Shown here piece by piece: positions 1 to 19,336 of a DNA stretch of 42,599 nt. The stretch spans positions 1-42,599 of IMG/VR virus record IMGVR_UViG_3300009605_000003; one strand, given 5' to 3'. The stretch is from a virus. Its lineage: Duplodnaviria; Caudoviricetes. Each line of letters opens with the position of its first letter. Position 1 is the stretch's first letter. Made by a program: the position numbers and the translations under genes. The notes beneath the pieces were generated by a model. The model did no database searches. It was not told the DNA's origin and was given only the letters and a program-made list of their open reading frames with translations.

Positions 1-123
1 AGGTCAATGAGATCTTGCTTATCACCTACTAGTATCCACTCAGTACCTGACTGATTATGGATACGGTCAACGGCACTAGCCCTCTTGATCTTCATCGCCA
101 TCTGCATCGTCCTCTCTATTCCA
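1..123. repeat. Terminal direct repeat, identical to 42477-42599 (circular assembly overlap)
   Basis: First 123 nt match the last 123 nt exactly; reading frames continue across the junction. Confidence 0.95.
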
Positions 124-645
124 TGGGTTTTCATTTGGGTCGGTGCTAACCACAATGGTTGGTTCAGGCTCGTGAATCTTGTGACGGTTAGCAATCACAG
201 TAAGTTGGAACAAGTTATCGACTACCTCCTTCTCGAAGTAAGTTTCACCAAACTTAGTTTGCCAAGGATAAACTACTAGCACAGAGTAACTATACCTTTC
301 AAGGCATAATCCTATCATGTGTAAGGTATCCTTAGAGAACCTATCCCAGAAGGCTATGATGTGGTTAGGGCATGGGCCGAACCTCAACATCTGCAGGTTC
401 CGTATTACCCCAGCCCGTGGTCCATATTCAGGCCAGTTAGCAGGCCACTCATGGACCTTCATACCCAGTCGAGTAGCAGCTAGGCTACCCATAAGGTCAG
501 CACCACCAGCCCCGCCATGATGGACGGTTATGTTAGTGTGAGGTTCAGGGTGTACTAGGTCCACGAGTGTCTGCTCGATAGCCTTCCCATGTGGGTCATA
601 GGTAGTCCATGACCTTGAGCCGGTTATCAGTAGGTCTATGACCAA
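76..645 (-). CDS. SLOG-superfamily protein (DUF2493/YspA-like)
   Basis: ITGSR, HGGAGGAD and WPANW..YG.RAG.IRN..M motifs typical of DUF2493 SLOG proteins; GGAGG SD upstream. Confidence 0.85.
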   Translation of the reverse strand: MVIDLLITGSRSWTTYDPHGKAIEQTLVDLVHPEPHTNITVHHGGAGGADLMGSLAATRLGMKVHEWPANWPEYGPRAGVIRNLQMLRFGPCPNHIIAFWDRFSKDTLHMIGLCLERYSYSVLVVYPWQTKFGETYFEKEVVDNLFQLTVIANRHKIHEPEPTIVVSTDPNENPWNREDDADGDEDQEG

Positions 646-884
646 CCTCCTCGGGGCATGGTTATCCTTAGCCCCTCATCCTTGATGGACCTTAGGTGAT
701 AGGTCACCGTGTCCATGCCAGCACCCAAAGCCTGGGTTGCACGCACTTGAGCCAATGGTATATTACCATCAGCGATTGCCTGGTTACACAACTTCAGATA
801 GTCAGAGGCAAACAAGGCATTACCTTGTATAGTCCTATCATTGACCGTCTGATTGTCCTTAGTGGACTGTTTTCTAGCAGGCAT
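636..884 (-). CDS. Early hypothetical protein (82 aa, start MPARKQ)
   Basis: ATG at 884 follows the AGAAAGGA SD of the repeated leader motif. Confidence 0.7.
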   Translation of the reverse strand: MPARKQSTKDNQTVNDRTIQGNALFASDYLKLCNQAIADGNIPLAQVRATQALGAGMDTVTYHLRSIKDEGLRITMPRGGWS

Positions 885-885
885 A

Positions 886-907
886 TAGTATTCCTTTCTA
901 CTTACTA
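886..907 (-). promoter_or_regulatory. Repeated leader/RBS motif, copy 1 (TAGTAAGTAGAAAGGAATACTA)
   Basis: Identical to 2110-2131; 3 mismatches to 3346-3367; each copy lies directly before an ATG. Confidence 0.8.
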
Positions 908-1066
908 AACCTACCGTTGATAGGTACGAGGGCCTACCTCCATAGTACCTCGCACCCATCCTCTGTATGTCAAGTGAATTGGCTATCCCCTACCAACCCG
1001 AGTGAGCTCCGCTTCATTTGTATAACCTACAGCTCACAATCCCTACTTCATATCAAGACAAGGTAC

Positions 1067-1237
1067 CTAGACCCTATTCAAATGGGTGGGTGGTGCCTCT
1101 ATCCTATATGATTGAGCCTTATTACCAGGTAACAGGTCAGTTTGAAAGGCTATGGCTTGGAAGCATAGTGATAGTGAGTCGGCTATTACCGAGTACATCA
1201 CATCATCCCCGCCATCGAGGACGTATACCCTATACAT
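1067..1237 (-). CDS. Small hypothetical protein (start MYRVYV)
   Basis: GGAGGG SD before ATG at 1237; tightly packed operon. Confidence 0.55.
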   Translation of the reverse strand: MYRVYVLDGGDDVMYSVIADSLSLCFQAIAFQTDLLPGNKAQSYRIEAPPTHLNRV

Positions 1238-1358
1238 TCCTACCCTCCAGTAACCGTCTGTCACCTATCTCAGCACAGTGCAGGCACTGTACACAGGTCT
1301 CAGGTGTCCAATGGTCCTCACGTTCAGTATGTAAGGCCCAATATTCTTCTATTGTCAT
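1230..1358 (-). CDS. 42-aa Cys-containing peptide (MTIEEYW...CVQCLHC), absent from ORF track
   Basis: TAATG coupling to the upstream gene; fills the gap in the operon. Confidence 0.55.
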   Translation of the reverse strand: MTIEEYWALHTEREDHWTPETCVQCLHCAEIGDRRLLEGRNV

Positions 1359-1669
1359 TAGCTATCTTTCCGTATCACTTCACAGAACATATCCCACAAA
1401 CTATGCCACGCCTCTATGTCGGCGTCTGAGTATGTGATCTGTCCTATGTCTAACCGTTCGGGCACAGGTATAGGGTTGATACTATCTGCTAGCGTACGGT
1501 ATGTGTTTCGTTCTTCTATTGTACTGTAAGCCACGAACTCATCAAAGAATAAGTCCGGTAGTGGTGCGATAGTCCGCCCATCCATCCAACCTATATGAGG
1601 TTTATCATACTGATTGGCAGTGGTGGGAAGACGCCGCTGAGATCCACCATGGCTAGGCCAAGTTTCCAT
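1358..1669 (-). CDS. Hypothetical protein (likely start METWP)
   Basis: TAATG overlap at both ends. Confidence 0.6.
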   Translation of the reverse strand: METWPSHGGSQRRLPTTANQYDKPHIGWMDGRTIAPLPDLFFDEFVAYSTIEERNTYRTLADSINPIPVPERLDIGQITYSDADIEAWHSLWDMFCEVIRKDS

Positions 1670-1851
1670 TAGACGTACTCGGCCATTACACAGGTATGTC
1701 CCATCCACTCCTCGAGTGTATAGAACCACATACCACATCCGGTAGGTGTGCTATCCACCTTCCCTTCAATAGTACCCCAATCAAACTCGATGATACCTGT
1801 GTAACATCTATATGGTGGTATCCCTGGCACTTTGTACTTACCAACGGCCAT
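1669..1851 (-). CDS. Small hypothetical protein (likely start MAVGKY)
   Basis: ATG 11 nt after the previous stop; TAATG coupling to the next gene. Confidence 0.5.
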   Translation of the reverse strand: MAVGKYKVPGIPPYRCYTGIIEFDWGTIEGKVDSTPTGCGMWFYTLEEWMGHTCVMAEYV

Positions 1852-1861
1852 TACCTTGTTG

Positions 1862-2110
1862 TTATCCAAAGCACTTACCGCATGAGAGGTTAGGCTTGAA
1901 CTGATCTTTGAGAGCCTCAATTCCGACAGACTCTGGATAGTCCCGTACTAGGTACCTAGGTGTTTTACCCAGCCAAGGTGCCTCAAGATATTCCCATATA
2001 CCACAGAAGGTGATCACCTTCTTGGTACGGATGGTGTTATCCCTAAGGTACTCTGTTTCTACCCGTCTTGAACCATGAGTCTTGCCGCCATACTTAGCGA
2101 CAACTAACAT
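1862..2110 (-). CDS. Hypothetical protein with Cys motifs (TFCG...CGKC)
   Basis: ATG follows leader motif copy 2. Confidence 0.7.
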   Translation of the reverse strand: MLVVAKYGGKTHGSRRVETEYLRDNTIRTKKVITFCGIWEYLEAPWLGKTPRYLVRDYPESVGIEALKDQFKPNLSCGKCFG

Positions 2111-2131
2111 AGTATTCCTTTCTACTTACTA
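2110..2131 (-). promoter_or_regulatory. Repeated leader/RBS motif, copy 2
   Basis: Identical to 886-907. Confidence 0.8.
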
Positions 2132-2135
2132 CTAA

Positions 2136-2292
2136 CCTGCAAGTTATGCAGGGTAGGATGAAGGACCATCACGGCCACTGACTGGTACTGCAAGGGAGCG
2201 AGTACCTTGGTAGCGTGGAGCAGACCGCTCAGGGCTAGGTCCCTCACCCTACCTTGCATCCAACCCGGCGACTTAGCCATGAGCTGGATGCA
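2136..2292 (-). ncRNA. Putative structured RNA / mRNA leader
   Basis: 2148-2167 pairs with 2238-2257 (19/20, two G-U on the minus strand) and encloses sub-hairpins; flanking hairpins at 2136-2152 and 2255-2292. Confidence 0.55.
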
Positions 2293-2385
2293 GGCATATG
2301 TAGGGGTATAAGTCGAGCACCCCATTGTAATTACAGGTCGGTTAGTTCATGTATATCACCCCCTCTCACCAACCTCAAGTGTGAA

Positions 2386-2580
2386 CTATCCAGGTAGTTT
2401 GATGGTATCACCCAACGTAGGATGTCTATGCCAGTACTTAGACTTGCCTCTGTCTGGCCCATTGGCCAGTACTGCATGGACATAGTACAGTCCATACATA
2501 GGGTCAAGCTTCACACTACGGTGAAGGTAAGACCTCGAGTCTAAGGACTTGGCCAGCCTCACGGCTGACTTATAGTCCAT
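2386..2580 (-). CDS. Small hypothetical protein
   Basis: GAAGGA SD; TAATG coupling. Confidence 0.65.
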   Translation of the reverse strand: MDYKSAVRLAKSLDSRSYLHRSVKLDPMYGLYYVHAVLANGPDRGKSKYWHRHPTLGDTIKLPG

Positions 2581-2753
2581 TAGTTATCCTTCCCTACTTC
2601 AAAGTCAAGAGAGCCCGTCGCCCTCTCATACCTCTCACCCCTTAGTGAGGTTACAGCACTAGCGATGGCTGCCTCTGCATTGGATGAGTCCTTCATTACT
2701 AGCCAGTACACGGCTAATTCAAGGTCACTCAACGCTTTGTCTACATTGTCCAT
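2580..2753 (-). CDS. 57-aa hypothetical protein (MDNVDKAL...), absent from ORF track
   Basis: GAGGTG SD; fills the gap; TAATG coupling to the next gene. Confidence 0.6.
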   Translation of the reverse strand: MDNVDKALSDLELAVYWLVMKDSSNAEAAIASAVTSLRGERYERATGSLDFEVGKDN

Positions 2754-2756
2754 AGG

Positions 2757-3185
2757 CTACATCACCTCGTACTCATCAGCCACAACCATTACCTGGTTAG
2801 CTGACGGTCTCACTATATGGTCACGCCATTCCCAGAGCAGTCGCTCAAAGATGGACTTGAAGTAATACCCGTGCCCTTTATCTTTGTGGTACTTGTAGGC
2901 CAAGAGATGGGCAGTCTCATGGACCATAGTGACAAGGTTGTTATCGTGTACCTTGATAAGACCTTCCCGCAAACGGGCCTGACCTTTCAGGTTCATACCT
3001 GATTTGCCAGTGAACTCAATCTCATATGTACCAGGGTCTATGCCCTCAGTCTCAAGGATGAGATCGAACAGAGCCCGTACCTCTTTCATAAGGTGCGGCT
3101 TGGTCCTAATAGGTGAGCGATAGTTAGGGTTGATTCCTTTAGGGAAATGTATCCCAGCCTCACCACCGAACCGGTCATAGGCCAT
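2757..3185 (-). CDS. SprT-like zinc metalloprotease
   Basis: HETAH (HExxH) followed by GHG..F, the SprT-like arrangement. Confidence 0.8.
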   Translation of the reverse strand: MAYDRFGGEAGIHFPKGINPNYRSPIRTKPHLMKEVRALFDLILETEGIDPGTYEIEFTGKSGMNLKGQARLREGLIKVHDNNLVTMVHETAHLLAYKYHKDKGHGYYFKSIFERLLWEWRDHIVRPSANQVMVVADEYEVM

Positions 3186-3343
3186 TAGATCATATGAACT
3201 ACAGGTAACTCAAGGTCTATGTACCTGCTCAGGATCGTGTGACACCAAGTACAGGCGAGGTGAGGACTATCATGTAGTACCTCATGTACCTGCATAGGTG
3301 ACGCATGTTCCATGAACAGGGATAGTAGGTCCCTGCCATCCAT
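3185..3343 (-). CDS. 52-aa hypothetical protein (MDGRDLL...CTWC), absent from ORF track
   Basis: ATG follows leader motif copy 3; TAATG coupling to the SprT-like gene. Confidence 0.65.
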   Translation of the reverse strand: MDGRDLLSLFMEHASPMQVHEVLHDSPHLACTWCHTILSRYIDLELPVVHMI

Positions 3344-3345
3344 AT

Positions 3346-3367
3346 TAGCAATCCTCTCTACTTACTA
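3346..3367 (-). promoter_or_regulatory. Repeated leader/RBS motif, copy 3
   Basis: TAGTAAGTAGAGAGGATTGCTA, 3 mismatches to copies 1 and 2. Confidence 0.75.
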
Positions 3368-3374
3368 CTTACTC

Positions 3375-3623
3375 GTGACCTTGTTGTCACAGTCTGATAT
3401 GCCCATCCTTAGGGGTAGTACTAAGCCCCTTATAGGTGGTGCTTATGAATCCTGGAATCGATCGCTAGACCGGCCAGGTCTAACAAACAGGACTCAGTGG
3501 CCCTTATTAGGGAACCTGTCCAGATGGACACATCAGACTATGACAGTTGTCACAGCCTAGAAGGTATACATCGCATACCCTCTAGGTAGTGGATGTATGG
3601 GGTGGCAGCTAACCCCACACACC
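3375..3623 (-). ncRNA. Putative highly structured RNA (~250 nt, multiway junction)
   Basis: About nine helices by eye, including 3390-3399/3531-3540, 3446-3454/3488-3496, 3462-3471/3477-3486, 3556-3586 and 3592-3623; imperfect pairs resolve as G-U on the minus strand. Confidence 0.65.
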
Positions 3624-3629
3624 AACCAA

Positions 3630-4172
3630 CTAGACGTTTACAGCGCCTGCGTTCCGTGCAATCTGGTCCTTCAGTTGCCACAGCTTCGAGTTGTTACCTT
3701 CAGCATCGGCCATCTTCTGGACGTAGTCAGCAGGAACACCAACACGATCAACTACTTCAGCGAGAGTCCCTTCGAACCCATCTGGCAGTCGGCGTCTGCG
3801 GATTGACCCGCCCCCACCGGAACCATTTGAAGTAGATGTGGCCTTTTTAGGGGCCACGGTGATCAGCCTGACCGTTGAGACAGCGGGTGCCTCTGGGTCA
3901 TTAGCATCGGGTGCCTGAACGATCTGTATACCGGATGCCCCAACTAATGCGATCTTTGCGAACACATCCTCGGGCAGCGCAGCAAGCAGATCCATTTCAA
4001 TTTCTTGAACGACATCCACACGCATGGAATTGAGAGCAGCTTCGGTTTCCTCGGCCTTGGTCTTATCCAAGACAGCGAGAGCCTCATTAGCAGACTTTAT
4101 CTTCTCGAGTATCGAAGCACGTTCCTCGTCCACCGACGTGGTGATCTCGGGTACCTGAACTTTGTCAGCCAT
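3630..4172 (-). CDS. Early protein with coiled-coil N-terminus, Gly/basic linker and small helical C-terminus (possible nucleoid-associated protein)
   Basis: AAGGA SD, promoter at 4260-4288, KKATSTSNGSGGGGSIRRRR linker; function is inference. Confidence 0.75.
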   Translation of the reverse strand: MADKVQVPEITTSVDEERASILEKIKSANEALAVLDKTKAEETEAALNSMRVDVVQEIEMDLLAALPEDVFAKIALVGASGIQIVQAPDANDPEAPAVSTVRLITVAPKKATSTSNGSGGGGSIRRRRLPDGFEGTLAEVVDRVGVPADYVQKMADAEGNNSKLWQLKDQIARNAGAVNV

Positions 4173-4259
4173 ATTCAGTTTTCCTTCTTGATTGCGTACC
4201 TCTGGACGCTGCCATTTCCAATGGTCAATTCAACTTTGTTGTTGAATCATCATGTCACC

Positions 4260-4288
4260 ATCTTATCACAGGTTCGACGCCGTGTCAA
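4260..4288 (-). promoter_or_regulatory. Sigma70-type early promoter
   Basis: TTGACA-17-TAAGAT with TG extension. Confidence 0.75.
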
Positions 4289-4366
4289 ATGGTACACCCA
4301 ACCGGGCGTGATATAGTAGATAGTTTAGGGTCATGTCTGGGACCGGTGCTATTCTATTGTACTAAC

Positions 4367-4396
4367 AGGCTATCATAGGATGGTACGGGTTGTCAA
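4367..4396 (-). promoter_or_regulatory. Sigma70-type early promoter
   Basis: TTGACA-18-TAGCCT with TG extension. Confidence 0.5.
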
Positions 4397-4419
4397 GGTC
4401 GCCCGTTGGCCAATCTGGA

Positions 4420-4656
4420 CTATCGCCTATGTAATCTCAGGCCTATTTTATTATCTTCCTCAGCCCACATTTCAGCGAGCACCCGTGCTTTGAGTTCACG
4501 TTGGGCTTCCCGTAGGGTATCCAGCCGTGTATCAATACGGCGGCGGATTCTACGATCAACCATATCATTATACGGTCCTTCTGGCAACACACGGCGACCA
4601 GGTAGGGGTATACGTGAGCCCATCGAACGGCGTTTCTTAACCGTGACGAAGGACAT
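4420..4656 (-). CDS. Arg-rich early hypothetical protein (start MSFVTV)
   Basis: AGGA SD; promoter at 4677-4705 just upstream. Confidence 0.6.
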   Translation of the reverse strand: MSFVTVKKRRSMGSRIPLPGRRVLPEGPYNDMVDRRIRRRIDTRLDTLREAQRELKARVLAEMWAEEDNKIGLRLHRR

Positions 4657-4676
4657 ATTCAATTCCTAACAACAAC

Positions 4677-4705
4677 AGATTATCAGATCGAGAACACAAT
4701 GTCAA
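4677..4705 (-). promoter_or_regulatory. Sigma70-type early promoter
   Basis: TTGACA-17-TAATCT with TG extension. Confidence 0.75.
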
Positions 4706-4784
4706 GGATCGAAGCGGGCATATCACAATTTAGGACCCGTCAATAACGGGTATAGTGATATCAATATCAATCTCGACATATACA

Positions 4785-4813
4785 AAGTTACACGAGATCG
4801 TGATACATGTCAA
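4785..4813 (-). promoter_or_regulatory. Sigma70-type early promoter
   Basis: TTGACA-17-TAACTT. Confidence 0.6.
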
Positions 4814-4898
4814 ATCGTACTTTCTGGACTATATCCGCAGATGATAATAGATTTTAGTCGATGCTCGTAGATCCTCGTATAATTTTGCTTTTCGGATA

Positions 4899-5115
4899 TT
4901 GTGCATTATTTCACAAAGATGGTGCTTGTGAAATCCTTCACAAAGTCCTGTCCTTGTGAAAAAGATCACAGCAGGTGTGAATAAAATCACAATGTCCCCA
5001 TGTGCTTGTGAAAAAGATCACAATGTCCCCAGGACTTTGTGAAAAGTTTCACACAATCCAGCTTGTGAAAAAAATCACAAAGGGGCTGTCGAGAACATTG
5101 TGAAATCCGTCACAA
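4899..5115. promoter_or_regulatory. Array of eight Rex-operator-like (TGTGA-N6-TCACA) palindromes
   Basis: 18-mers start at 4899, 4926, 4954, 4975, 5006, 5037, 5063 and 5098; the 4926 copy TTGTGAAATCCTTCACAA is a perfect TTGTGAA-N4-TTCACAA. Confidence 0.85.
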
Positions 5116-5129
5116 AGAACATATGTTCT
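5116..5129. promoter_or_regulatory. LexA (SOS) box, Gram-positive/Chloroflexi type
   Basis: AGAACATATGTTCT is a perfect AGAAC-N4-GTTCT palindrome. Confidence 0.65.
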
Positions 5130-5207
5130 ACACCCCCCATGCGATCTATCATACTAAAAAAAAGTTTATGGATAGTAATCGCAATGTTTCCAGATCACCA
5201 GATTCGA

Positions 5208-5669
5208 CTATACCTTTACTATTTCTGTGGCTGGGCGGTCCCAGGCTGGGGGTGCGCCGCCAAGATTTTGTATTTCCCACCAAAACCCATCCATTTTGAG
5301 AGTTTGAACCTGCACTAGCAAGGTATACCGTTGGTGTTGTACGGATCCTTCCGCATAATGTCGTAGGCGATCTTGATAATCGCTACGTCGGAGCTTATAA
5401 GCTGCTCTATGGCGGATAATTCTCTCTCTCTTGTTACGATCTTGGGGATTTAGGTCCAATGGTGGCCTACCTGGTTGTGGAGCTTGACGTGGATTCTCTC
5501 TAAGCAGTCGGAATGCGTCTACCAACCAACATTCAGGGTGCCAAGCTACCACTTTACGTTCTATCCTGGACTGAACACACTCAAAATCTTTATCTATAAT
5601 ACCAGAACGCTGGCAATCATCCTTGAAACAGGAGTAATCCCTATTTGCTATAGCTGGCCATAGATCCAT
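5208..5669 (-). CDS. Putative Zn-binding/DNA-binding protein (start MDLWP)
   Basis: CFKDDC...HPEC pair, PGRPP motif and basic helix; AGGTGA SD; own promoter. Confidence 0.7.
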   Translation of the reverse strand: MDLWPAIANRDYSCFKDDCQRSGIIDKDFECVQSRIERKVVAWHPECWLVDAFRLLRENPRQAPQPGRPPLDLNPQDRNKRERIIRHRAAYKLRRSDYQDRLRHYAEGSVQHQRYTLLVQVQTLKMDGFWWEIQNLGGAPPAWDRPATEIVKV

Positions 5670-5704
5670 TTGTTCACCTAACCTATATCGTGTATTATAT
5701 ATAC

Positions 5705-5733
5705 AGTATAACACAATGGTTCAACTTTGTCAA
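5705..5733 (-). promoter_or_regulatory. Sigma70 promoter
   Basis: TTGACA-17-TATACT with TGTGT extension, the same design as 38695-38723 and 42314-42342. Confidence 0.8.
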
Positions 5734-5771
5734 CTAGGTCAGACATACCTGTTATATATTGAGGGACAATA

Positions 5772-5800
5772 TTGACATACACAACCACCTATGATAGTCT
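5772..5800 (+). promoter_or_regulatory. Sigma70 promoter of the packaging operon
   Basis: TTGACA-17-TAGTCT with TG extension. Confidence 0.7.
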
Positions 5801-5838
5801 TGATGTATACCAATATACACTGATTATAAGGATTACCT

Positions 5839-6555
5839 GTGGATTACCCACCGGCCGCTCCACCAGCTGCTTCCCAGGTTATAGGGTCCCTGACTCCTGA
5901 ACCAGATACCCAAATGACCGAAGAAGCGACCGCTGTCGTAGAATCCGTTTCACCCTACTGGCAGGACTCCTCGGCAAAAACTGCCTATATGGGGTACAGA
6001 GGAGCAGGATTCAATAAACGGGAAGCGCTGGACTTAGTATCTCGATCGGACCGCACGCTATATTCATGGTACGCTAATGACAAAGAGTTCCAGGAGTTAG
6101 ATAATCAAGGACTCAACGAATTCAGAGAAAAAGTTGGACGTGACTTCGCCTACGCTGACTACATGCGTAATTGGCGGCTCACCATGCAGTATGATGGCAC
6201 TGTGCTACAGAAGGCAGTATCTGAACCTGAAAACCTCTCAGTTGAGGACCATCGGTACTTGCGTACTATTCGGGCTCAGTACACCCCCGCTGCACTTACT
6301 GCGATCACCGCCTACATGAAGGGTACAGAATCAGAATTACATGGCAATCGTACTCTCATTATGCAGGCTATAAACGCTGTCGCCAAAGACAGCCCTTCGT
6401 TTGGACCAATGTTCGACCCACACCAAGCAATAGAGGTAACTAATGCCGACCAAGAGAGGCCGCAGAGTAACCATACGTCAGAAGTCAGCTCGCAGGGGGA
6501 ACGCTCGCAAGGCCACAGTAACCAGGAAACTAGTGGGAAACAGGCGAGGCCCTAA
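5839..6555 (+). CDS. terS: Putative terminase small subunit (HTH)
   Basis: Directly upstream of terL; HTH-like REALDLVSRSDRTLYSW...D.EF. Confidence 0.65.
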   Translation: MDYPPAAPPAASQVIGSLTPEPDTQMTEEATAVVESVSPYWQDSSAKTAYMGYRGAGFNKREALDLVSRSDRTLYSWYANDKEFQELDNQGLNEFREKVGRDFAYADYMRNWRLTMQYDGTVLQKAVSEPENLSVEDHRYLRTIRAQYTPAALTAITAYMKGTESELHGNRTLIMQAINAVAKDSPSFGPMFDPHQAIEVTNADQERPQSNHTSEVSSQGERSQGHSNQETSGKQARP

Positions 6556-6571
6556 GGGTGGTCGATTCTAA
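6443..6571 (+). CDS. 42-aa Arg/Lys-rich protamine-like peptide overlapping the terS 3' end
   Basis: AGAGGT SD before ATG; MPTKRGRRVTIRQKSARRGNARKATVTRKLVGNRRGPKGGRF has no acidic residue. Confidence 0.6.
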   Translation: MPTKRGRRVTIRQKSARRGNARKATVTRKLVGNRRGPKGGRF

Positions 6572-8216
6572 GTTCGTACCACCAGCTCCAACAGAATCTC
6601 GATCTGACTTGAAGATGGAAGGACTTTCTAATACTCAGATCCAACTCTATATGGAACATATGGTCCGTAATAGAAGAGAGTTTATTGAATCTTGGATAAC
6701 CATCAACGACAAGAACAGGACACCTGGTCCTTTCTCGCTGAATCCTATTCAGTCGGATATGAGCTCTTACATTACGGAGAGGGGCGGCAGGCATGTAATG
6801 CTCAAGCCGTCCCAAGTGGGTGCTTCCAGTTATTTGATTTGCGATATGCTAGTAGATACTATCTTTACCCCTGGCACAACTTCAGTAATTGTCGCTCACG
6901 AAGAGTTCATTACCCAACGTCTACTCACTAAGGCTCAAGCTTTTTATGATTCCATACCAGAGGAATTCAAACCACCCATGGCTCACCGCGGAGCACATGA
7001 AAAATCCTTCCCTGATATTCACTCTGTGTTCTATATCGGATCAGCTAGAGCCTTCACTTTCGGGAGGGGCGATGCTATACATAACTTCCTCGCAGATGAA
7101 TATGCTTTTTGGCCGGACACTGCTAAGATTATGGTGCCCACCTTGCAACGAGTACCACCTCAGGGCCGGGTGATGGTTCTATCTACTCCCAATGGTGAGG
7201 ATAATGACTTCCATGATCTTTACTATGAAGGAAAGTCTCCCGACTCTAACTGGCAATCACACTTCTATCACTGGATGCAGCACCCAGAATATTTCTTATA
7301 CTCTGAATCTCCTCTTGCTCTCCCATCTGACCGTCAAGAAGAACTGAATCTCCTCACTGATATTGAGATACAACTTCTAAGAGATGGTTCAACCACAGAT
7401 CAAATAAGATGGCGTCGTTATAAGAACGCTGAGATGGCAGCACTAAAGAGACGTGGTGATACAATATCACTATTCCCACAGGAATTTCCCGAGGATGAAA
7501 TAACTTGCTTCCTAATAGCAGGAGACATGGTCTATGATCCCGAAGAGGTTGATAGGATGGCTCGTGATTGTATTGAGGCGCCCTCGTCCAAAAGTTTACT
7601 TCCAGGATTCCCTGCTACCAAAACTCTCATATGGGAAGAACCACAAGAACAATACGACTACCAAATCGGAGTAGACCCAGGCCAAGGTAAGCATACTGAA
7701 ACTTGTATATCAGTTTGGAGGTTTGAGTACGATGCAGAACTTGATATTGAGCGACCTATCTTTGTCGCAAGGTGCTCTGGCCTTATCGAACCTGACGAAA
7801 CCGCAGACCAGGCCAAAGCTATTGGCCGTTTCTACAACACCGCTTCAATATCGGTCGAGGGAAACGGACATGGAATGGCGGTCCTTTCCGGAGTTAGGGG
7901 TTACCCTAGACTCTACCACAGAGTTGAGATCGCCAGCGGGCGTCGCACTCGTACAATTGGTTGGATAACCTCCAATAAGACCAAACCTTTTATGATCTCT
8001 CAAGTCCAAGAATTAATGGAACATATGATCTGCCGAGATATACGGACAGTAAGTCAATTCCGTAATATCAGGTGGGTTAGTAATGCCCGAGGTGATAAGA
8101 TAGCTCAGTCTATGGGAGCCGACGACCTCCATGATGGTGCAGCTATCGCCATAGCTAGTCGAGATGTTTACAAGGGTGCCCGAGGATTCGTAGGCGCCAC
8201 AGCGGGGTGGGATTAG
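6558..8216 (+). CDS. terL: Terminase large subunit
   Basis: LNPIQ, LKPSQVGASS (Walker A variant), FLADE (Walker B), LSTPNG, and nuclease motifs GVDPGQG and DDLHD. Confidence 0.95.
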   Translation: MVDSKFVPPAPTESRSDLKMEGLSNTQIQLYMEHMVRNRREFIESWITINDKNRTPGPFSLNPIQSDMSSYITERGGRHVMLKPSQVGASSYLICDMLVDTIFTPGTTSVIVAHEEFITQRLLTKAQAFYDSIPEEFKPPMAHRGAHEKSFPDIHSVFYIGSARAFTFGRGDAIHNFLADEYAFWPDTAKIMVPTLQRVPPQGRVMVLSTPNGEDNDFHDLYYEGKSPDSNWQSHFYHWMQHPEYFLYSESPLALPSDRQEELNLLTDIEIQLLRDGSTTDQIRWRRYKNAEMAALKRRGDTISLFPQEFPEDEITCFLIAGDMVYDPEEVDRMARDCIEAPSSKSLLPGFPATKTLIWEEPQEQYDYQIGVDPGQGKHTETCISVWRFEYDAELDIERPIFVARCSGLIEPDETADQAKAIGRFYNTASISVEGNGHGMAVLSGVRGYPRLYHRVEIASGRRTRTIGWITSNKTKPFMISQVQELMEHMICRDIRTVSQFRNIRWVSNARGDKIAQSMGADDLHDGAAIAIASRDVYKGARGFVGATAGWD

Positions 8217-10007
8217 ATGGTTGAGACACAACAAGGATTAGGATCAAAAACTCCATCGGGGTTTAGTAGAACTCCGTTTCAGCCGTCTGATGGAGTGCCT
8301 CTAGTATTTGGTTCAATGGATTCAGTTACTAATTCTACTTGGTGGACTAGACGAGCCCAGACTATTGCAGGTAACTGGAATGCTCGTAATGCTAAGATGA
8401 AAGACTGGTACAATATTTTGTTGCTTGAGGATAAACTCAAGAAGCCAGGTTTAGAATCAGTTGTAGCCAATGACCCGCGAACTTCATTCAACCTTGCAAC
8501 TCATATTCTTAGTAGGTCCTTCCTTCGTCATGGGGAGTCCCTGTTCCCGGTAAGTAGCGAGTTTGACCGTCCACTTGCAGATCTAGCGGTCCAAATGGAC
8601 GCATGGTGGGAACTTGAGAACAAGCGAAATATGTCTAGAGGACGACGTGCTTGGCTTACCGAGGTGTCTCAGCATATGCTTGCAACTGGATGGTATGCAG
8701 TCAAGGTTGACCCTGATGAGACCAAAGCAGAAATTATTAGCCCAGCTCAGGTCTTTCCAGAGTATGACCCAGATATGGGAACTATCGAGGTAGTACATGC
8801 TTTCAGGCTAACTAAGCACCAATCTCTCATCAAGGCTCAGAATAATGGATGGAATGTAGAGTCCTTCGACCCACTCAACACTGGCCTTATGCAACGGTTG
8901 AAGGGTTGGTTCAATAATCCTAATGACACAGTACAATGGTATGACCACTGGATCTGGACTGGAGACGGAGCTATCAATGCAGTCCTGGCCGATGGTGAAT
9001 TTATGCGCCGGCCAATGGCCTTCACAGATCTCGACAAAATACCGATATTTACAGGTCCTGCCAAAGGACTACCAGATAGAGGAGAGATTCTATCTTCAGA
9101 TTGGACTAAGTCAGCGGGTGAATCTTTTGTAGGAGTTAGTGAAGAACTCTGGCATAACATGGACCGCCAACTTACATATCTACAACAACTACTCCGTGAC
9201 ACAGCTCAGGCTCGTTGGAAGGTTAGAGGTAATGTAGATGTAACCAAAGAGGAACTTGAGCGACGTGGTGGTGTGTTCCGAATGGATGAAAACTCTGATA
9301 TCTCTATGATAGATGGTATCCCCATTCCTGTTGAGATAAGTACCCAACTTCATATGATGAGTGGGATGCTTCAGAGAGACACCTTCCCACACTCTATCTT
9401 TGGTGATGTAACTGGGCAGATCTCTACTCTACAAATGTCACAAATAGCTGGTGCAGCCCAGCATGTGCTAACACCATATAGTGATGCTCTCACTACTCTA
9501 CTAGGTGAGATAGATAATATGTGGTTACGGGCCGTCAATAACATGGGTGAGGATCCACTCGGAAATTTATTACCCATAGGTTTGCCAGATAATCTTATTC
9601 TCAAAGTATCTCAGTACTTGTCAGTCCCAGGTGATGCTGTAGCAAGAGCAAACTTCTCCAAGATGATGAATCCTGATTTTACTCTATCCCCACAAACTCT
9701 CATGGAATTATCATGGCCTGAAGTTGATAATCCTCTAGAGGAAATAGAACGATCCAAAGCTTACAAGGCATTGAACTCACCACCATCCCAGCGTATAGAT
9801 TTGATAATTGCTTTGGAAATTCGATCTAATGAAGAAAAAATAGCAGGTAATGAACGTGCTTCGGAACTCTATGCTCAAGAAGCTACTAGGCTGAGACAAC
9901 AAGGTGCTGGACAGGATTTCCAACCGCCTGGACCAACTGGACCAGCTGGACCACCTCCTTCACCAAATGTAGCCCCACAGACTATCAGTACTGGAGAATT
10001 TGTATAA
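8217..10007 (+). CDS. Portal protein
   Basis: ~600 aa immediately after terL; portal-like helical pattern and Pro/Gln-rich tail. Confidence 0.8.
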   Translation: MVETQQGLGSKTPSGFSRTPFQPSDGVPLVFGSMDSVTNSTWWTRRAQTIAGNWNARNAKMKDWYNILLLEDKLKKPGLESVVANDPRTSFNLATHILSRSFLRHGESLFPVSSEFDRPLADLAVQMDAWWELENKRNMSRGRRAWLTEVSQHMLATGWYAVKVDPDETKAEIISPAQVFPEYDPDMGTIEVVHAFRLTKHQSLIKAQNNGWNVESFDPLNTGLMQRLKGWFNNPNDTVQWYDHWIWTGDGAINAVLADGEFMRRPMAFTDLDKIPIFTGPAKGLPDRGEILSSDWTKSAGESFVGVSEELWHNMDRQLTYLQQLLRDTAQARWKVRGNVDVTKEELERRGGVFRMDENSDISMIDGIPIPVEISTQLHMMSGMLQRDTFPHSIFGDVTGQISTLQMSQIAGAAQHVLTPYSDALTTLLGEIDNMWLRAVNNMGEDPLGNLLPIGLPDNLILKVSQYLSVPGDAVARANFSKMMNPDFTLSPQTLMELSWPEVDNPLEEIERSKAYKALNSPPSQRIDLIIALEIRSNEEKIAGNERASELYAQEATRLRQQGAGQDFQPPGPTGPAGPPPSPNVAPQTISTGEFV

Positions 10008-13000
10008 TGGCTGAACCGACTCCTCTGGAAGAAAAGCTAGCTCCAAAGCGTCTAAGGTTGGGTCGTGAAGAAGATCAGCCACCCTCTATTCCTTCTGAGC
10101 TGCTAATTCCTAAAACTATACCTGGTCCAATAGGGAGTCAATCTATTGGACAGATCCCAAATCCTCTGCACCCAGAGCCACTTATAACTGGTGGTGTAAG
10201 AGGGAGAGGAATTCCAAAGATTTCTCCCCGTGCAGTAGGGGGAGGATGGCATGCTCCTGATGATAACTTGGAAGCTCTAACTGAAGCTGGCATACAGAAC
10301 TTTACAGCTAGTGTCCGCCAAGCTGAGTCAAATTTACCAGAAATGTACAAGGATATGGAAGTATTTTGGTACACGGAAGCCCAACGCGAAAGTTTGAACC
10401 TTTCAATTGATGACCACAACCTTAGAGAATATATGTTCAACTTCCGTAGTACGATGGCAGACAGGCAGTTTAGCTCTTTCGTATTCACTAGTGGTGCTGC
10501 TGATTTCCCAGTACAGTCTGTACCAACTAATGATGATCTCTTAGCCCAGGATGAAACTTTCCTAGCTGGTGTTGAGGCTACTAATGCCCAACGGGTAAAA
10601 GTTGCTCGGGCTAACTTCATGTGGCAGACTCTTATCACTATGCAAACTGGCTGGGTAAATGGTGAGTATGATGATATAGAAGATGCTATAAATACTCTGA
10701 TAGGTACAGGTGAAGACGCTGAATACATAAGGTCTCTTATATCTCCAGAACTCCTTGAACAACTCGACTCTGCATTTTCTAGTCTAGCAGCCAATGTGCC
10801 TCGTACCTTCTCAGTAGTTGATATAGGTGATAAGGATATAGATGACGTTTTAGAAGACCTAACTAAACCAGCTGAGTCACAAGTTATATTTATCAGCAAC
10901 TACTCAGCAAAGCAACTTGCTGACATGATGCAAACTCGAGGTATCCCAGAGTTAGAGTTACCTAGGGGAATGTCTATTAGTGACTTCACTAGATACCTTG
11001 GTACTCAGGGTGTAGATAAAGAAACTATTGATGGCCTAAATTCTTCTCGAGAAGATCTAACTGAACTTGTGGGGCTATTTCAAGAGCAGCGCCTCATGTC
11101 TACAGCTATCCAGGCAGACTTAGCTAGTGCTATTGTACCAGCTCTGTCTTGGAAAGAGGCAATGAAACTATCTATATTACAGCCTGCCTACCAAGCAGCT
11201 ACCATGATGGAATGGTATGCTAATAGTATTAGTGAACCTTCTGCTGCACTTCAGGTTCGTAGTGGTCTTTCACCTGTAACCTTCGCTACACAAGGTTATA
11301 CAGTAGGGTCAGCCTTTGGGAAATATGGTCGTGTAATAGGTGCTGCGGCTGGGTTTACTTATGGGATGTATTCACAATTCAAATATCGTGGTGAACTCCA
11401 ATCAGCTTACTTACATGCTCGGTCTCGTGGCGATAATTTTTGGGAAGCTAATGGGCAGGCTTTCCAAGATTGGGACGCAGGTTTTGGATCTAAGATACTT
11501 CTTGAGACTGCTGGTGATCCATTATTGTTCTTCGGGTTTGAAATGTATGGTAGACAAATTGCAAAGATAGGATCTAGCAGTAGAGCTGGTCTAATAAACC
11601 CTGCTACTGGTCTAGTTCGTACTAGGGATTCTAATATAGCTTGGTTATCAAGTAGGCTTCTAGCCACAGAGCGACGTGTAAACCAAGTTACAGACGCTGC
11701 GTTTATACTTCCATTCAAAGCGATAGGTAAAATACCACTAACTCCATCCCAGGTAGCAATACGACGTGCTATTGCAGTAGCTAACCGTGGACGTAAGCTA
11801 GTCAAAAAAGTATCAGTTACTGGATTACCCGATGGGTCTCTACCTCCAGGACCATTGGTCAAGTGGTTCTCCCCCACTATTGACCGCGACACCACAAGAG
11901 CTGTAGCTGAGTATTCTTGGCAAGCAATGGTTGATGCTAAGAAGTCCAATGTAGCTATGGATGATTATGCTCTATTTGGCGATATGCTAAGAGAGTCTGT
12001 AAACCGTTGGTTGGATGCAGAGGAGATATCTAGATTATTTACTCCTATGCTAAGGAAGTCCACGGAAGGTAGATCAAATATAAGGTATGTACCTGCTCGT
12101 GATCCCCAGACGAAAATAGGTCAGGTACTCACTGTCCTCGACGAGAATACAGTGGAGATTACTATTGAGAATGTAACTAAAATCAATGAAATATTACAAA
12201 GTACAATCCATAAATCTGGTACTAGATATTCTATATTGGAAGCTAGAGCAGAGATAGCTAGAATTCTCCAAGCAGGTAATACGGCTGGTGAAAGGGAAGC
12301 TGGTCGAATAATAGGTAGGTATGCTAGAAATATCAAACGAGATGCTCTAGCTCCATTCCGATCTCTAGAGAATCCAGACGATATGTTCAAGAGGGTATTC
12401 CAGGAAACTCGAGATACTTTCAATAGGAATATCAACTCTGATGCCTGGCGGTACTATGAAGATCTTGGGGTCAACCAATCTCGCACAACTCGTGAGATAG
12501 CTAAGTATGGTCAACGTGCACCACTAACTTGGGCTATGTGGTTGGATCAAGCTATAGTATACCCATTTAGTAGGGCAGTTCTTTACTTCCTCAACTACGG
12601 ACCATTCAATGTTCTTGAGTCCAAGATTAGGTTAATAATGGCGGGTCATCCTATGCGGCCACCACCTCATATTAGAGCTGAACCAGCTTATGCTCTATGG
12701 CTGCAACAGGGTGACTTGACTAACTCTTCAGACTTCTTATTTGATTTAGATAGTACTTTTCATACTATGAGACAAGGTCCTATTGCTGCTCCACTATCCG
12801 TAGAAGAATCTCATCTTGGTATACCTATAGCTGATAATGTTAGGCGTGGTATATTTCCTGGTATAACTGAAGACCTTGACCACTTCGCCGCTAAGTTCCC
12901 AATCTTTGGAGATAAGATTGCACCTAAAGTAGGTGAACTCCCACGTGGGTTGATGTCATTAGCTTCGCTGAATGATGTATCTTCTAGGATAGCTACCCAT

Positions 13001-16000
13001 GATATGATTAGGTATGATTACTATGAGTTCGCCAGGCAGCTAGATATCCTTGGCCCAAAGATGAATCGTCAACTACGAGGTGCTATAGCAGGCGATGTAG
13101 CTGCTGGATTTGGTCATGTTGATTGGGAAATACTTGAGCAAAGAGTTGGTAAAGATCTAACCGATATTGTCAAAGGTCATATTACAGGTGTGGGACAGCG
13201 AGGGCCGGATATGGTGGAAGCCATAGAAGGACCAATAGCTGCTTTACTGGATCTCAAACTAAGCCATAATATTGATAAGGCACTCAACGAACATCCTTGG
13301 ATGGATGAACCTTTCAAGAATTCTATTATGGAATTAGTGCGTAATGGTAAACTTCATTCTGGAAATCTTGATGAAATGATGCCTCAGTTTGCTGCTATGT
13401 TACTCGAGTCTAATCATATCTACCAAGCTTGGTGGGCAGATCAGATTACTGATGAACTAGTCCGTCAAATAAAGACTTTCACTCCTACAGATGTAAAGTC
13501 CGCTATGGCTATGCTGGGTCAAGTAGATCTTATTTTGGAAACAGTCCGTACTAAGATGAGTAATGTATCACAAGCTGCAGCTGTCCGAGGCCACCAGATC
13601 AAGAGTAGTACAGTTAGATCAGGTCTACATTCAAACTCTAAGGATGTCATAGAAAAGATGTCCAATAGCCTTGAGGCAGCTATTATAGACTTGAGAGAAG
13701 ATATAGTAGCTAAGTTACGGGTTGGAGTACCTGGTATAACACCAAGTAGAGCTAATCTTATGTTACGCAGGTTAGACTTTGTTGAGCAGGATATGCGTAA
13801 TCTGATAGCTGCTGATGGTCCTAGGGTTATGGAAGCAAGGCGACATGAGTTAGTATTTATTAGGAGAACTGAGTCTCTTGAGTCAGCTAACCTCAAAGTA
13901 GAGCAAGCTTGGAATGATTACTGGGCCCAACATTACAGGATAAAGGCGGATATGTCAGATATTGATGACGCACTTTTCCTTGAAGAAGGTGGTATCAAAC
14001 CAGAAAAAGGTATCCGTGAGCCTATCTCTACGGAACTTACTTCTAGTGACATAGCCTTCATGTATGCAGGTAGAGATACAATCTCTTCAGACATGGTATC
14101 CAATATTTTGGATAAACAATCACTGACTCTAAAGACTAAAGAAGAGTTTATAGCTGAGCATATGGCTACTGCTGAGAGGCAGGCTGAAAAACGTAAGGCT
14201 AAGGCTGAGGACTTCGGGTTCAACCAAGGTAGTGTTGGTAAAGTCTATGATGACTTGTTATCATCTCTATCATTCCAGCCTGGTTCAGGTTATCATGAAC
14301 CTCTAATGCAGGCCGTTGAAGGGGTTAGGAATAGTCTCTACGATTCTCTTTGGAAATCAAAAGTAACGCCTGAGGACCATGAAATATATAGTAGGGTTAT
14401 TAGGCAAGTTGCTAACAATATAAGACGTACTGATATCACTGATGGATATTGGGAGCCTAAGATAACCCGTATCCCCAACAAGGATATGGACCCACAGTGG
14501 GATAACCCAATCACTAGTCCTGATGATATACCACCAGGATTTGTACATGGTACTAGTGAAGGTAATATCAAAAATATCCTCAGGGATGGACTTACTCCTG
14601 GATCTAGCCTAGAACCCTCGGGTCAAGATGTATACTCTACCAGTGATGTAATAAGGATTCACTACTCTGGTGAAGTAACTGGCCCAGACGCATCAAGGTC
14701 TTTTGCTCCAGAGTTCAAAATCCGTAGTAACAATACAACACTTCAGCCCAGTCAAATATCTGCTATAGAAATAAACGCTCAAGATATAGCAGTACCAGGA
14801 ACTGATGAAGGAGTCCGCTCGGCAGAAGAAGTAATCCAGGATTCTGGTGATTTTGCCGAATCCTTAGGATTCCCCAGAGATACACCTGAAGTCATCTTCG
14901 ACCAGGGTAGTCCTAGTGAAATGCGTAGGTTGGAAAGAATCCTTGATAGCCAGGAAACTGCCCCAGGCTCTGGTGTACGGGCAGATGGCCAAGCTGTAGC
15001 TATTGGACCCGAAGGAGTAGAGGCTCAAGTAATCAAGGATATAGAAGCTAGTGGTCTAAATATTGCCATCTTCCGTAACACCTTTGATGAGGATGGAATC
15101 TCCACTGGTATGGAGTTGATAAAGCCTGGTCGACGCACTCAAGTCTCAGGTACTCGTGCTCTTTCAGATGAAGGTAGACCAGTTATTGTATACCATGGTA
15201 CCTATAGAAATTTTGAAGAGTTCTTACCAGATTCTAGTAGTAATTTCAATTTTATGGGCGCCGGCATCTATGTAGCTGAGAACCCGGCCGTAGCTGGGAA
15301 ATACGTTGGGGACATGTCTCATAAGTGGACCGCTAGAGGTAACCTAATTTCAGAGAGTCCGGCTGATTCTCAGGTGATAGCTGATGACCTCAACATCGAC
15401 TTGACAAAGGTGGCTGACGCTATAGAGCATTCACGTACTGCACCGGGAGCACCAGAAAAGATTAGGTTATCCAGGTCAGAGGTTGAAGATCTATACTGGG
15501 TTACTGGTAAATCAGATATCCGCCAGGACACTAGCGTTCCAGTAGATCTTCCCTTTATGACTCATCAGGCAGATGTACTTCCTGGGGAACGTTCTATAAC
15601 CACACTTGAAAAGTATCTTAGAAGGATAGATTGGAACAGTGTACCCGAATCAGAGGATATTCCTGATGAAGTGGCAAATATATCTATTAGGGACGTACAT
15701 TTTGAGCAGGATGTTCCCCATGGTCCTATCCACGTAGAGGTTGATTTTGACCAAACAGTTGATGCCAGACCACAGGTAAAGACGGCTCGCCTCAATGTCC
15801 AGAATCCATACAAAGCTGACCATGCTATAGGTAGTTCAGAGGTTCGTGCTGTCAACGCCGACCCGGTACAAACAGGTGTTACCTTCGAAGCCTCTTCCGC
15901 TTTGGATGAAGGTGCTATATCTACTGAAATGAATATGGATGAGGTGTTCGATGACTTCAAGTCTATAGGTCTCAAGTCCGAATTTCATACCTCCAGGTAT

Positions 16001-19000
16001 GATACTAAGCCTATCCCTGAGACCTCAGAGTTTGGTGGCCTACAACTCTTCGTAGGTGAAGAAGCCATAGAGGGTGGGATTGAGGCACAGTCGAGAGCTA
16101 ATGCTGAAGTCTGGGCGGAGATTCTAAATGAAGGTGCTGACCTCACGCCTGGACCCGTCTTTATTACACAGCAGGACGTAACAAGTAATAGTATCCAGAG
16201 AGTAGTCAAAGCTACTCCTAAGATGAAGCATGAAGTTGAAGCAGTAAGGCTTCATAATGAATCCTTTACCAAGGAAACTTCTGCCGTTCAAGTACCTGCA
16301 TTTGAATTGGACATGGATGTAAGGTACCATGGTAGGACTTACAATCTCCGAGGTACCATGCAGACTGGACCATCCTATGAAGGTGAGGACTGGAGTAGTG
16401 GAGGAGCATTACTTATAGAACTCCACACCAAGGGTCAGGAATCTGCTGGCGTTATAGGTCTAGTAACTGGTCTTCCTCCCGCAGACACTGGTATTGTACA
16501 GGCTCTTACCGACAACGATCTTGTTCGCATAGGCCGTAAGGCTATGGATGAATCGCCTGAAGATGTAAAGAGTATAGGATTTATAGGTCGATCAGTTGGA
16601 GATTTAGATGTTGGTATGGCTGAAGCCGGCGCTCCATTGGTGGGTACCAGAGAATTCTTTGAGCGAGGACGTAATAAAGAGGAATGGGTCCTCGAAGTAG
16701 ACTACGAGCAAATACGGGGTATTGGTCAACCAATCTCCAACGCTGATGGTTCTACCACCAGGGTAGAAAACTTTGACTACATTTCTGAGAGTGAGGAATT
16801 TGCTGACGGTCTCAAGAAAGAAGCATTTATACCCGTCTATAATGTGAAGAAGACCTTCCTTGACCCAGTCAAATCTGCTGAGTCTAGGCTTCAGCATAAC
16901 CAGTTCATGGCAGGATATGATGAGTGGACTAGCAAACTTGACTTCAGTCATCTGGATGATACTACTAGGTCAGCACGAGAGCAAGATATCCGCTCCATGA
17001 GGATCGAGCTTGAAAAAGTATATGAAGATCCTAATTACAAAGATTTCCATCCTGAAACCGACCAGGTCAAGTCGGTCCGTAATATCAATGTTTACCCAAA
17101 CTTACGGGTATTATCACACCTCATAGACCGTTCGTGGACGTATAATTTAGGTGGCCCCTCGACTGGTCAGTCCGTTGGTAATGTGCTAAAAGAGATATTA
17201 CAGTCTGGTGATTTTGACAGTATTAGGCACTACGGTGGGCCCTATGGTGGCACCTTGAAATCCAGAACAGGTGGAGATGCTGAGGGTAGAGTCTGGATAC
17301 TTTGGGATGGCAATCAAATCCAACTCCCGCAGGATAGTGTGGACAAAATTCTTATGAGGAGAGATATACCTAACCCAGAATGGACTGATATCCGTGAGCG
17401 GGCTGCTCTTGCCGCCAAGGAACGTAGGACACTTGACTACCCTACCTACAATAATGATACAGCACTCAACGCTAGTGCTCAATCCATCTTCCCGTACTTC
17501 AATTATGAAGCCCAACGATGGCCTTGGATTATGCGTAACATGCTATCACGACCAGGACCTTTACAAGCTTGGGGTCGATACACAAGAGATAGTGATGGTG
17601 GCTATACTCACATACCAGGAACAAACTTAGAGATCAACCCTCTTAGAGGCACAGTATGGATGGGTGGCCTTAGGAGACTTTATAAGGCTGACTACCCAGA
17701 GTATGCTGACCAATTTGGATTTGGAACAGAATTCCTTGACTACATAAGTAGGCTAGGGTTCTGGCCTGGGATTCACGTGCAACTACCAATCACTATGTTT
17801 GGTGCTGCATCTACTAGTCATCGACCACAGCTAGGTGAGGTATTACCTCCAACTGCTCAAACTGCCTTAGGTGCTATTACGGCAAAGTTCCCTGATGCAG
17901 GATTTACTGCTGCACTAAATAATATAATATTCCCAGATAGATTCCGTGACTTCAAAATTGCTAACCTACTGTCCGAGACTGAGTTTGGTGGACATGATGG
18001 TGTTCAAATTTGGCAGAAACGTAAAGATGGTATAGCCCTAACTGCTACTGAGCAATCTGCATGGAATAAGACTGCTCGTCACGTAGCCATTATATCGGCT
18101 GGGCTAGACTCACAATTTGGGCTATTCAGAGTTAGAGGTAGAGAGAAGATTGAAGCTCTTGAAGCTTTACGTCAAGCTTACTTTGTCTACACTGGAATTA
18201 GCCCCGAGCAGCAGATAGAAATATCTTCTACTTTCGCTGCTACAGGACGTAGACTAAATGATGTTGTAGCTTTAGATCCGATGGACAGGTTTGTTGTGAG
18301 AGAATTCCTCGAGAAGCATATGAACCATCTTCAACAGCAAACTGCACCTCTAATGCCATCACTCCTTGGTGATATCCAGTCTAAGACTATTGAGTATCAC
18401 AACCAGATTGAGGATATATTTGAGGGGGCTCGTCGTAATGGGTTCGTAGACACTGATGCTATATCTGGAGCCGAATATCAGTCTCACCGTCCTATTGAAG
18501 CAATAGAGTTAGATTGGCGTGCTGGGGTAATTACTTCTCGTGATGCCATATCAGAAATAAATGATGTTCTATCCTTTGCTATAGACAGCGTCAAAGGTAT
18601 AGGTGACTTGCCTAGGTTTGAGGGTGTGCCAAAAACCCGATTCGAGCGTGAGCAGTTCTATATGGAACATAACATACCTATGCCGACTTGGTCTGCTGGA
18701 CAAGAGATCTTATGGGAATACTATAACCTTGAACCACGGCTCAAATTCAACCCTGATACTGGAACTATGGAAAGGGACTTTGACGGTTACTTTGCTCATA
18801 TAGATATGATGTTTGAACTTATGGGTCCTGAATTTGGACCTCGTCTGCTTAGCCGTATCCAAGCTGACTGGGCTGATATGCAAGTGCTAAGGTGGGGTGA
18901 CAGCCGTGAATTTATAAGGCCATATAAGAACATAAGAGCTATAGTCCAACGACGTCAACCTGAGAATGAACAGGCAATTATTGAGCGGTTCCTCAGGTCT

Positions 19001-19252: not shown

Positions 19253-19287
19253 GAATGTTATAGCATATAAATTGCATTAGATAACAA

Positions 19288-19316
19288 TTGACCCGAAACA
19301 ACCAATCTGATATACT
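19288..19316 (+). promoter_or_regulatory. Sigma70 promoter of the capsid operon
   Basis: TTGACC-17-TATACT with TG extension. Confidence 0.7.
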
Positions 19317-19336
19317 AGATATATCGAGGTAGATCT

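Follow-up and report, generated by a model that had tools for sequence, protein, structure and literature searches.

The array and its surroundings

The window, by which we mean the whole stretch of DNA analysed, is the complete 42.6-kb record (42,599 nt) of a phage from marine samples that encodes a terminase, a capsid protein, a tail-spike, a family A polymerase and a 3081-aa protein. Its early promoters read outward, and between them and the terminase side lies a slot of non-coding DNA. This slot is bounded on the left by the first early gene (3630-4172, minus strand), a core gene of the family whose product has a long coiled coil, a Gly-rich linker and a small helical C-terminal domain. 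The right edge is a second core gene (5208-5669, minus strand) with a predicted PARP-like zinc finger and helices; the finger (C-x2-4-C...H-x2-C) gives weak matches to the DNA-break-binding fingers of PARP-1, and the product is a candidate end-maturation or late-activation factor. Fold searches with both products returned no significant match. Homologues of the 3630-4172 gene are found beside the slot in either orientation, and the layout of the protein is reminiscent of nucleoid-associated proteins. The promoter of the zinc-finger gene (5705-5733, minus strand) reads towards the array, and a search for an intrinsic terminator between the two found none. Further right are the promoter of the terminase/structural operon (5772-5800, plus strand), a probable small terminase, assigned by its position (5839-6555, plus strand), and the large terminase (6558-8216, plus strand).

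Within the slot we observe eight palindromic Rex-type boxes of 18 nt each (4899-5115, no strand). Their starts at 4899, 4926, 4954, 4975, 5006, 5037, 5063 and 5098 are exactly those of the original prediction, and the start-to-start spacing is irregular and unphased (27, 28, 21, 31, 31, 26 and 35 nt). All eight match the 18-bp palindrome TTGTGAA-N4-TTCACAA, with its fixed spacer, at 0-2 mismatches (1, 0, 2, 2, 1, 1, 1 and 1 for boxes 1 to 8), so box 2 alone is perfect. Box spacers are A/T-rich (A+T 0.83), positions 4-5 are intact, and most of the deviations affect positions 1 and 7. The exact core TGTGA-N6-TCACA is found in 7 of the 8 boxes and nowhere else in the 42.6-kb genome; base composition predicts ~0.05 exact cores genome-wide vs the 7 observed in 217 nt. 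When up to 2 mismatches are allowed, the genome total of 27 shows no excess over the 26 expected, so the signal is one of clustering. The remaining ~2.9 kb of intergenic DNA holds no further box, save one 1-mismatch core at 3539 that has non-Rex flanks. We regard the eight-box array as confirmed.

The linkers, previously described as mostly divergent, share more sequence than that description allowed, with both direct and inverted local duplications. Among strains, the covered part of the array carries 7 substitutions, 0 of them in the GTGA/TCAC cores and 1 at box position 2; this sparing of the cores is suggestive (p ~0.07, calculated by hand). The array has no match in Rfam and lacks the constant repeat-spacer period of a CRISPR-like element. 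A structured RNA was considered and rejected, since the folding z of -6.9 is explained by the palindromes, as were promoter-like matches at 4932 and 5048, which are composed of box halves.

A LexA-type box, AGAAC-N4-GTTCT (5116-5129, no strand), abuts box 8 and contains the sole exact GAAC-N4-GTTC in the genome. Both this box and the family context described below had been overlooked. To its right, a C-run and an A-run (5131-5163, no strand) form a candidate packaging end; in many relatives this spot carries a pyrimidine-CG-AAAT motif, which the two runs match poorly. About 18 of 70 relatives have a single pyrimidine-tract-CG-AAAT motif right of their boxes, a candidate pac or terminus signal. 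An iterated matrix for this end motif drifted and was dropped.

On the left, four good leftward promoters read away from the array, all on the minus strand, with -35 ends at 4813, 4705, 4396 and 4288: TTGACA-17-TAACTT (4785-4813), the first of these sigma-70-type early promoters, TTGACA-17-TAATCT (4677-4705), TTGACA-18-TAGCCT (4367-4396) and TTGACA-17-TAAGAT (4260-4288). The boxes are clear of the promoters, as had been reported, and the nearest -35 element (4808-4813, minus strand) is 86 nt from box 1. The array therefore does not overlap a repressed promoter, as a Rex operator would.

In T7-like and headful phages, the first-entering end has early promoters directed outward from a stretch that lacks genes and adjoins the terminase. 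Since the promoters of the window point outward beside the terminase in this way, the array region is likely, by analogy, to be the leading DNA end. Contig ends in the family do not pile up at the slot, a comparison made on contigs, whose depth was not usable. No other non-coding region is as large as the slot, so its position is partly confounded.

The protein predicted to bind the boxes

We detected no rex, CRP-type HTH or tyrosine integrase gene in the phage genome, which bears out the earlier statement that the phage encodes neither Rex nor a CRP-type regulator. It had also been proposed that the flanks fit Rex better than CRP, and this held: matrices derived from sites of a neutral pattern rank 7 of 8 boxes as Rex over 22 E. 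coli CRP cores and 8 of 8 over 15 cores from rex-negative Chloroflexota genomes, at a moderate separation of the classes (leave-one-out 11/15 vs 8/22). A T precedes the core in 13 of 16 box half-sites vs 9 of 44 in E. coli CRP sites. The core shared with CRP is exact in 7 of 8 boxes, but by these scores the flanks and spacers fit CRP less well than Rex in 7 of 8. S. aureus Rex tolerates changes at operator positions 1 and 7, spacers are A/T-rich, and Rex leaves DNA at high NADH (PMC2883068).

Evidence from the host side comes from 151 Chloroflexota genomes, 45 of which have rex and 129 of which have CRP-family genes. The motif TTGTGAA-N5-TCACAA was found in 16 of 45 rex-positive and 2 of 106 rex-negative genomes (p 4e-8, a value that overstates independence because the genomes are incomplete and related). 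Half of the host loci scanned (13/26) adjoin formate transporter, hydrogenase, heterodisulfide reductase (Hdr), SQR, PDH or cytochrome genes, and three host sites are identical to box 4 at 17 of 18 positions. A box near rex itself was seen at 3 of 30 rex loci. In Chloroflexota, the probable host group, the motif is found together with rex and redox genes, and phage-type flanks in these genomes follow rex, not CRP. One genome in which no rex was found (G089) has a core identical to that of boxes 3 and 5. The binder of the array is probably Rex; judged from operator sequence and genome comparison, we consider such binding quite likely.

Site types in the same slot of related phages

TerL has 306 homologues. 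From three viral, one metagenome and one genome scan, keeping the best 80 per viral or metagenome scan, we obtained 70 non-redundant loci, 61 of which have usable DNA left of the zinc-finger gene. Across these 61, the slot holds a directional 11-mer in 35 loci, LexA boxes in 19 and Rex arrays in 3. Control segments inside the terminase region (n=69) contain the 11-mer in 4 cases, a LexA box in 1 and a Rex array in 0. At least one motif type is present in 42 of 61 loci and none of the three types in 19, and site types can be mixed within a single locus. De novo dyad counting recovered GAAC-N4-GTTC 27 times vs 0.75 expected. The carriers of Rex arrays are the window genotype, L023 and L144, which are neighbours in a FastTree phylogeny but do not form one clade. 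The Rex boxes of L144 adjoin its promoters, and the four boxes of L023 score nearer the rex-negative class. In L027, L046, L203 and L263 the LexA box abuts a promoter -35 element, an arrangement that looks regulatory.

Other repeats were seen in the slots of individual relatives. That of L056 holds four TAGTAACTTCCTA-like copies ~900-700 nt left of the zinc-finger gene, and further slot repeats are paired in L156:3360-3790 and tandem in L057. In marine contigs 11 and 20 of runs X15 and X16, a Rex-type and a LexA-type box lie close together, a pairing that recurs.

The 11-mer, the commonest motif of the slot, is equal or nearly equal to the published XerD arms of dif (PMC3025954): of 88 arms, 15 are exact, 42 have one mismatch and 31 have two, so that 57 of 88 are within one mismatch. 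Whereas dif has both arms, the family 11-mers are lone directional half-sites; an XerC-type arm end occurs at the expected place in 0 of 88 arms. In the relatives 70 of 94 copies point the same way, and the window has no copy. XerD is the predicted binder of the 11-mer, on sequence identity with the published arms. At L223 (same contig as L055), 10-11 tandem XerD-arm-like sites at ~15-nt spacing lie ~1.9-1.65 kb left of the zinc-finger gene.

The same 11-mer is replichore-polar in 6 of 9 Chloroflexota genomes (G101, G026, G038, G076, G121 and G028), the first three of which had been preselected by their matches in a preceding pattern search. Each of these chromosomes has 22-43 copies vs 0-12 for control, densest near a single switch point, and in G076, G121 and G028 the polar 11-mer and rex are both present. 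The polar signal was absent from G048, G139, G148, four Bacillota genomes and E. coli, and where the polarity switches we saw no dif. The polar 11-mer may mark a separate system of a KOPS-like, fork-trap or SMC-unloading kind; a role of XerD and XDS sites in SMC unloading is described in two reports (PMC11894783, PMC13220808). In one Bacillota genome XerD arms occur as inverted pairs, and four such pairs, spaced by 6 nt as XDS sites should be, lie at ~3.70-3.74 Mb of G427:C1. Dif-type patterns are not enriched in Chloroflexota (25 genomes vs 22 control), and the dif sites predicted for Dehalococcoides in the literature differ in their arm.

The polar 11-mer points to a Chloroflexota lineage as the host group, one that would include genomes of 1.4-1.5 Mb, which we take to be Dehalococcoides-sized. 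A LexA-type box like that of the window lies upstream of lexA in 28 of 30 Chloroflexota lexA loci. The TA flank of LexA boxes is found in 19 of 61 Chloroflexota, 26 of 54 phage and 6 of 93 Bacillota cases, so the phage LexA flanks are closer to Chloroflexota than to Bacillota. No spacer or prophage link to a host was found, and a DNA search of window positions 1-19900 against 401 genomes gave one 42-nt match at 86%. TerL and polymerase match those of cultured phages at 21-27%, too low for a host assignment by homology. Weak capsid matches (25-31%) were found in 32 of 301 Chloroflexota genomes, in a sample composed of Chloroflexota alone. Host assignment from GTDB genomes was abandoned, as the family contigs there fall in unrelated bins.

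Arrays of these boxes are also present in unrelated phages. Pattern scans gave at least 31 non-family loci with ≥3 cores in 400 nt and enough flank, after 5 short loci were dropped. A large terminase lies ≤3.6 kb downstream of the array in 8 of the 24 loci whose large ORFs were scanned, an enrichment that is partly confounded because non-coding DNA concentrates near terminase genes. A contig of 14.6 kb that encodes a phi29-type connector carries three boxes at 40-nt spacing within each of its ~200-nt inverted terminal repeats, 51-146 nt in (L011:51-146 and L012:10001-10096). The remaining arrays are scattered, in part over the early regions of large phages, and some have non-Rex flanks. In two unrelated phages (L266 and L334) Rex boxes are mixed with six LexA-type boxes within 1 kb, and the mixed array of L266 is directly upstream of its terminase.

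Possible functions of the slot

The sites that fill the slot have one predicted property in common, which is that each would be bound by an abundant, tight host binder. Because interchangeable sites for unrelated proteins occupy one place, we tentatively favour the occupancy of the likely leading end by host proteins, although at somewhat less than even confidence, over explanations specific to Rex. Under this reading host Rex would dock on the eight boxes at the likely first-entering end, just outside the early promoters, in a slot that can be filled interchangeably with Rex boxes, LexA boxes or XerD-arm-like polar sites. The selected function would be tight binding of a host protein on the slot immediately upon entry. 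The bound protein could be a roadblock to helicase-nucleases or translocases that load at the end, and might also serve as a ratchet, until transcription by host RNA polymerase starts at the leftward promoters; titration of Rex would be a by-product. Several observations stand against host-protein occupancy: NADH releases Rex, a poor property for a shield, 19 of 61 relatives are without the three motifs, and LexA boxes lie at -35 elements in several.

The original prediction took the array to be a sponge for host Rex, which would derepress NAD+-regenerating and respiratory genes; extended to the family, the adjacent box would titrate LexA and relatives would titrate other proteins. We rate this as possible, with a weight clearly below that of occupancy. 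It is still credible because the phage genome has 7 exact cores vs a median of 2 (range 0-13) across 45 rex-positive genomes, although exact-core counts underestimate the true host sites. The boxes are near-consensus and outside promoters, an early-entering location would act immediately, and modest numbers of decoys can perturb a bacterial regulon (PMC8599769). Titration probably takes place during replication whatever the selected role. A sponge, however, has no need of a fixed place, yet every box is in one slot; what the family's slots most often hold is a directional, non-transcriptional site (70/94 in one orientation), and a shared benefit of titrating Rex, LexA and XerD is not evident. 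A Rex-specific metabolic sponge does not account for the fixed slot or for LexA boxes and a non-regulatory polar site as its usual occupants. Of the earlier interpretation, Rex as the binder is supported and titration is numerically possible, but derepression of respiration as the selected purpose has no specific support, with Rex arrays in just 3 of 61 relatives, LexA boxes or XerD-arm-like sites, neither of them metabolic operators, as the usual content, and the slot fixed beside the packaging genes. The alternative offered with it, that Rex occupancy affects early events, fits at least as well as the sponge. In such a gate on host state, Rex bound at high NAD+ would block or delay early transcription, read-through from the 5733 promoter, or the initiation of replication or packaging at the end. 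We think this rather unlikely as the selected role, even though Rex and LexA are both released by signals, LexA boxes lie at -35 elements and Rex boxes beside the L144 promoters in relatives, and the 5733 promoter has no terminator found before the array. Precedents are Spo0A, with host boxes at phi29 promoters and origins (PMC2731898), and LexA in GIL01 (PMC4551915). Against a gate, 86 nt separate the boxes of the window from the nearest -35 downstream of them, no signal is known to be sensed by XerD-arm-like sites, and no integrase or repressor that would support dormancy was found in the genome. The ends of phi29-like phages are already protected by terminal protein, so the boxes in the terminal repeats of the phi29-like contig fit a replication gate better.

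Two further readings concern a different binder. That a host CRP/FNR-family protein uses the array as an activator platform or decoy seems improbable: the 16-nt core is identical, CRP-family genes are widespread (129/151 Chloroflexota genomes), some rex-negative genomes are core-rich, and the four L023 boxes score nearer the rex-negative class, but Rex is preferred in 7/8 boxes of the window against E. coli CRP and in 8/8 against rex-negative Chloroflexota cores, and phage-type flanks track rex instead of CRP. Iterons for a phage protein acting in packaging or replication are very improbable. The three genes that flank the slot, those of the zinc-finger protein (5208-5669), the 3630-4172 product and TerS, encode plausible DNA binders; they are, however, core genes that are also present in relatives lacking the array, and the boxes are irregularly spaced and occur in unrelated phages and host chromosomes as well.

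Returning to host-protein occupancy, its widest form is a claim that we hold more loosely than the occupancy itself: that this is a family of small Chloroflexota phages with a plug-in landing pad at the leading end that accepts sites for whichever host protein binds tightly, one type of site mimicking a polar signal that points to the host terminus. Host proteins would then shield or steer the incoming genome, providing protein-free counter-defence and entry control in DNA alone. If so, phages could draw host proteins to the end of their DNA with no gene for the purpose, and operators of unrelated proteins would be functionally interchangeable there, which bears on the survival of entering phage DNA before gene expression. 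Even as a sponge or gate, the array would connect a phage with the NADH/NAD+ sensor, a natural link of which our literature searches found no earlier example. For a large unassigned phage family, the boxes also provide a signature of the host, and the polar chromosomal motif of the Chloroflexota lineage is apparently undescribed.

Sites for host proteins on phage genomes are already known. The lytic Bacillus phages phi29 and Nf carry Spo0A boxes and parS sites for host proteins that they do not encode, some near the ends, as in the window; those boxes overlap promoters and origins and repress, whereas here eight redox-sensor boxes are clear of promoters and relatives swap site types (PMC2731898). 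GIL01 likewise has Gram-positive-type LexA boxes in a phage control region, but it is temperate, its boxes are in promoter P1 and gp7 is needed, while the window has one LexA box 300 nt from a promoter and no lysogeny module was found (PMC4551915). The Rex operators (ROP) of S. aureus resemble the boxes in their TTGTGAA-W4-TTCACAA-like 18-mer, A/T-rich spacer and tolerance at positions 1 and 7; host ROPs are single or paired at promoters, in contrast to eight tandem phage copies away from promoters (PMC2883068). Extra sites can titrate a bacterial regulator, which is likewise conceivable here, although the decoys there were engineered on plasmids (PMC8599769). Our searches of the open-access literature found no description of phage Rex arrays, natural phage decoy arrays or end ratchets. 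New relative to these precedents are the compact array on so small a phage, the family-wide slot in which site types can be exchanged, the host-side support for Rex and the mimicry of a polar host chromosomal signal.

Elsewhere in the window, the 3081-aa protein (10007-19252) is probably ejected and has an ART-PolyVal ADP-ribosyltransferase-like stretch at residues 1721-1767, just below cut-off. Downstream of the early promoters, an early gene (76-645) encodes a SLOG-family (YAcAr) protein with a nucleotide-binding fold.
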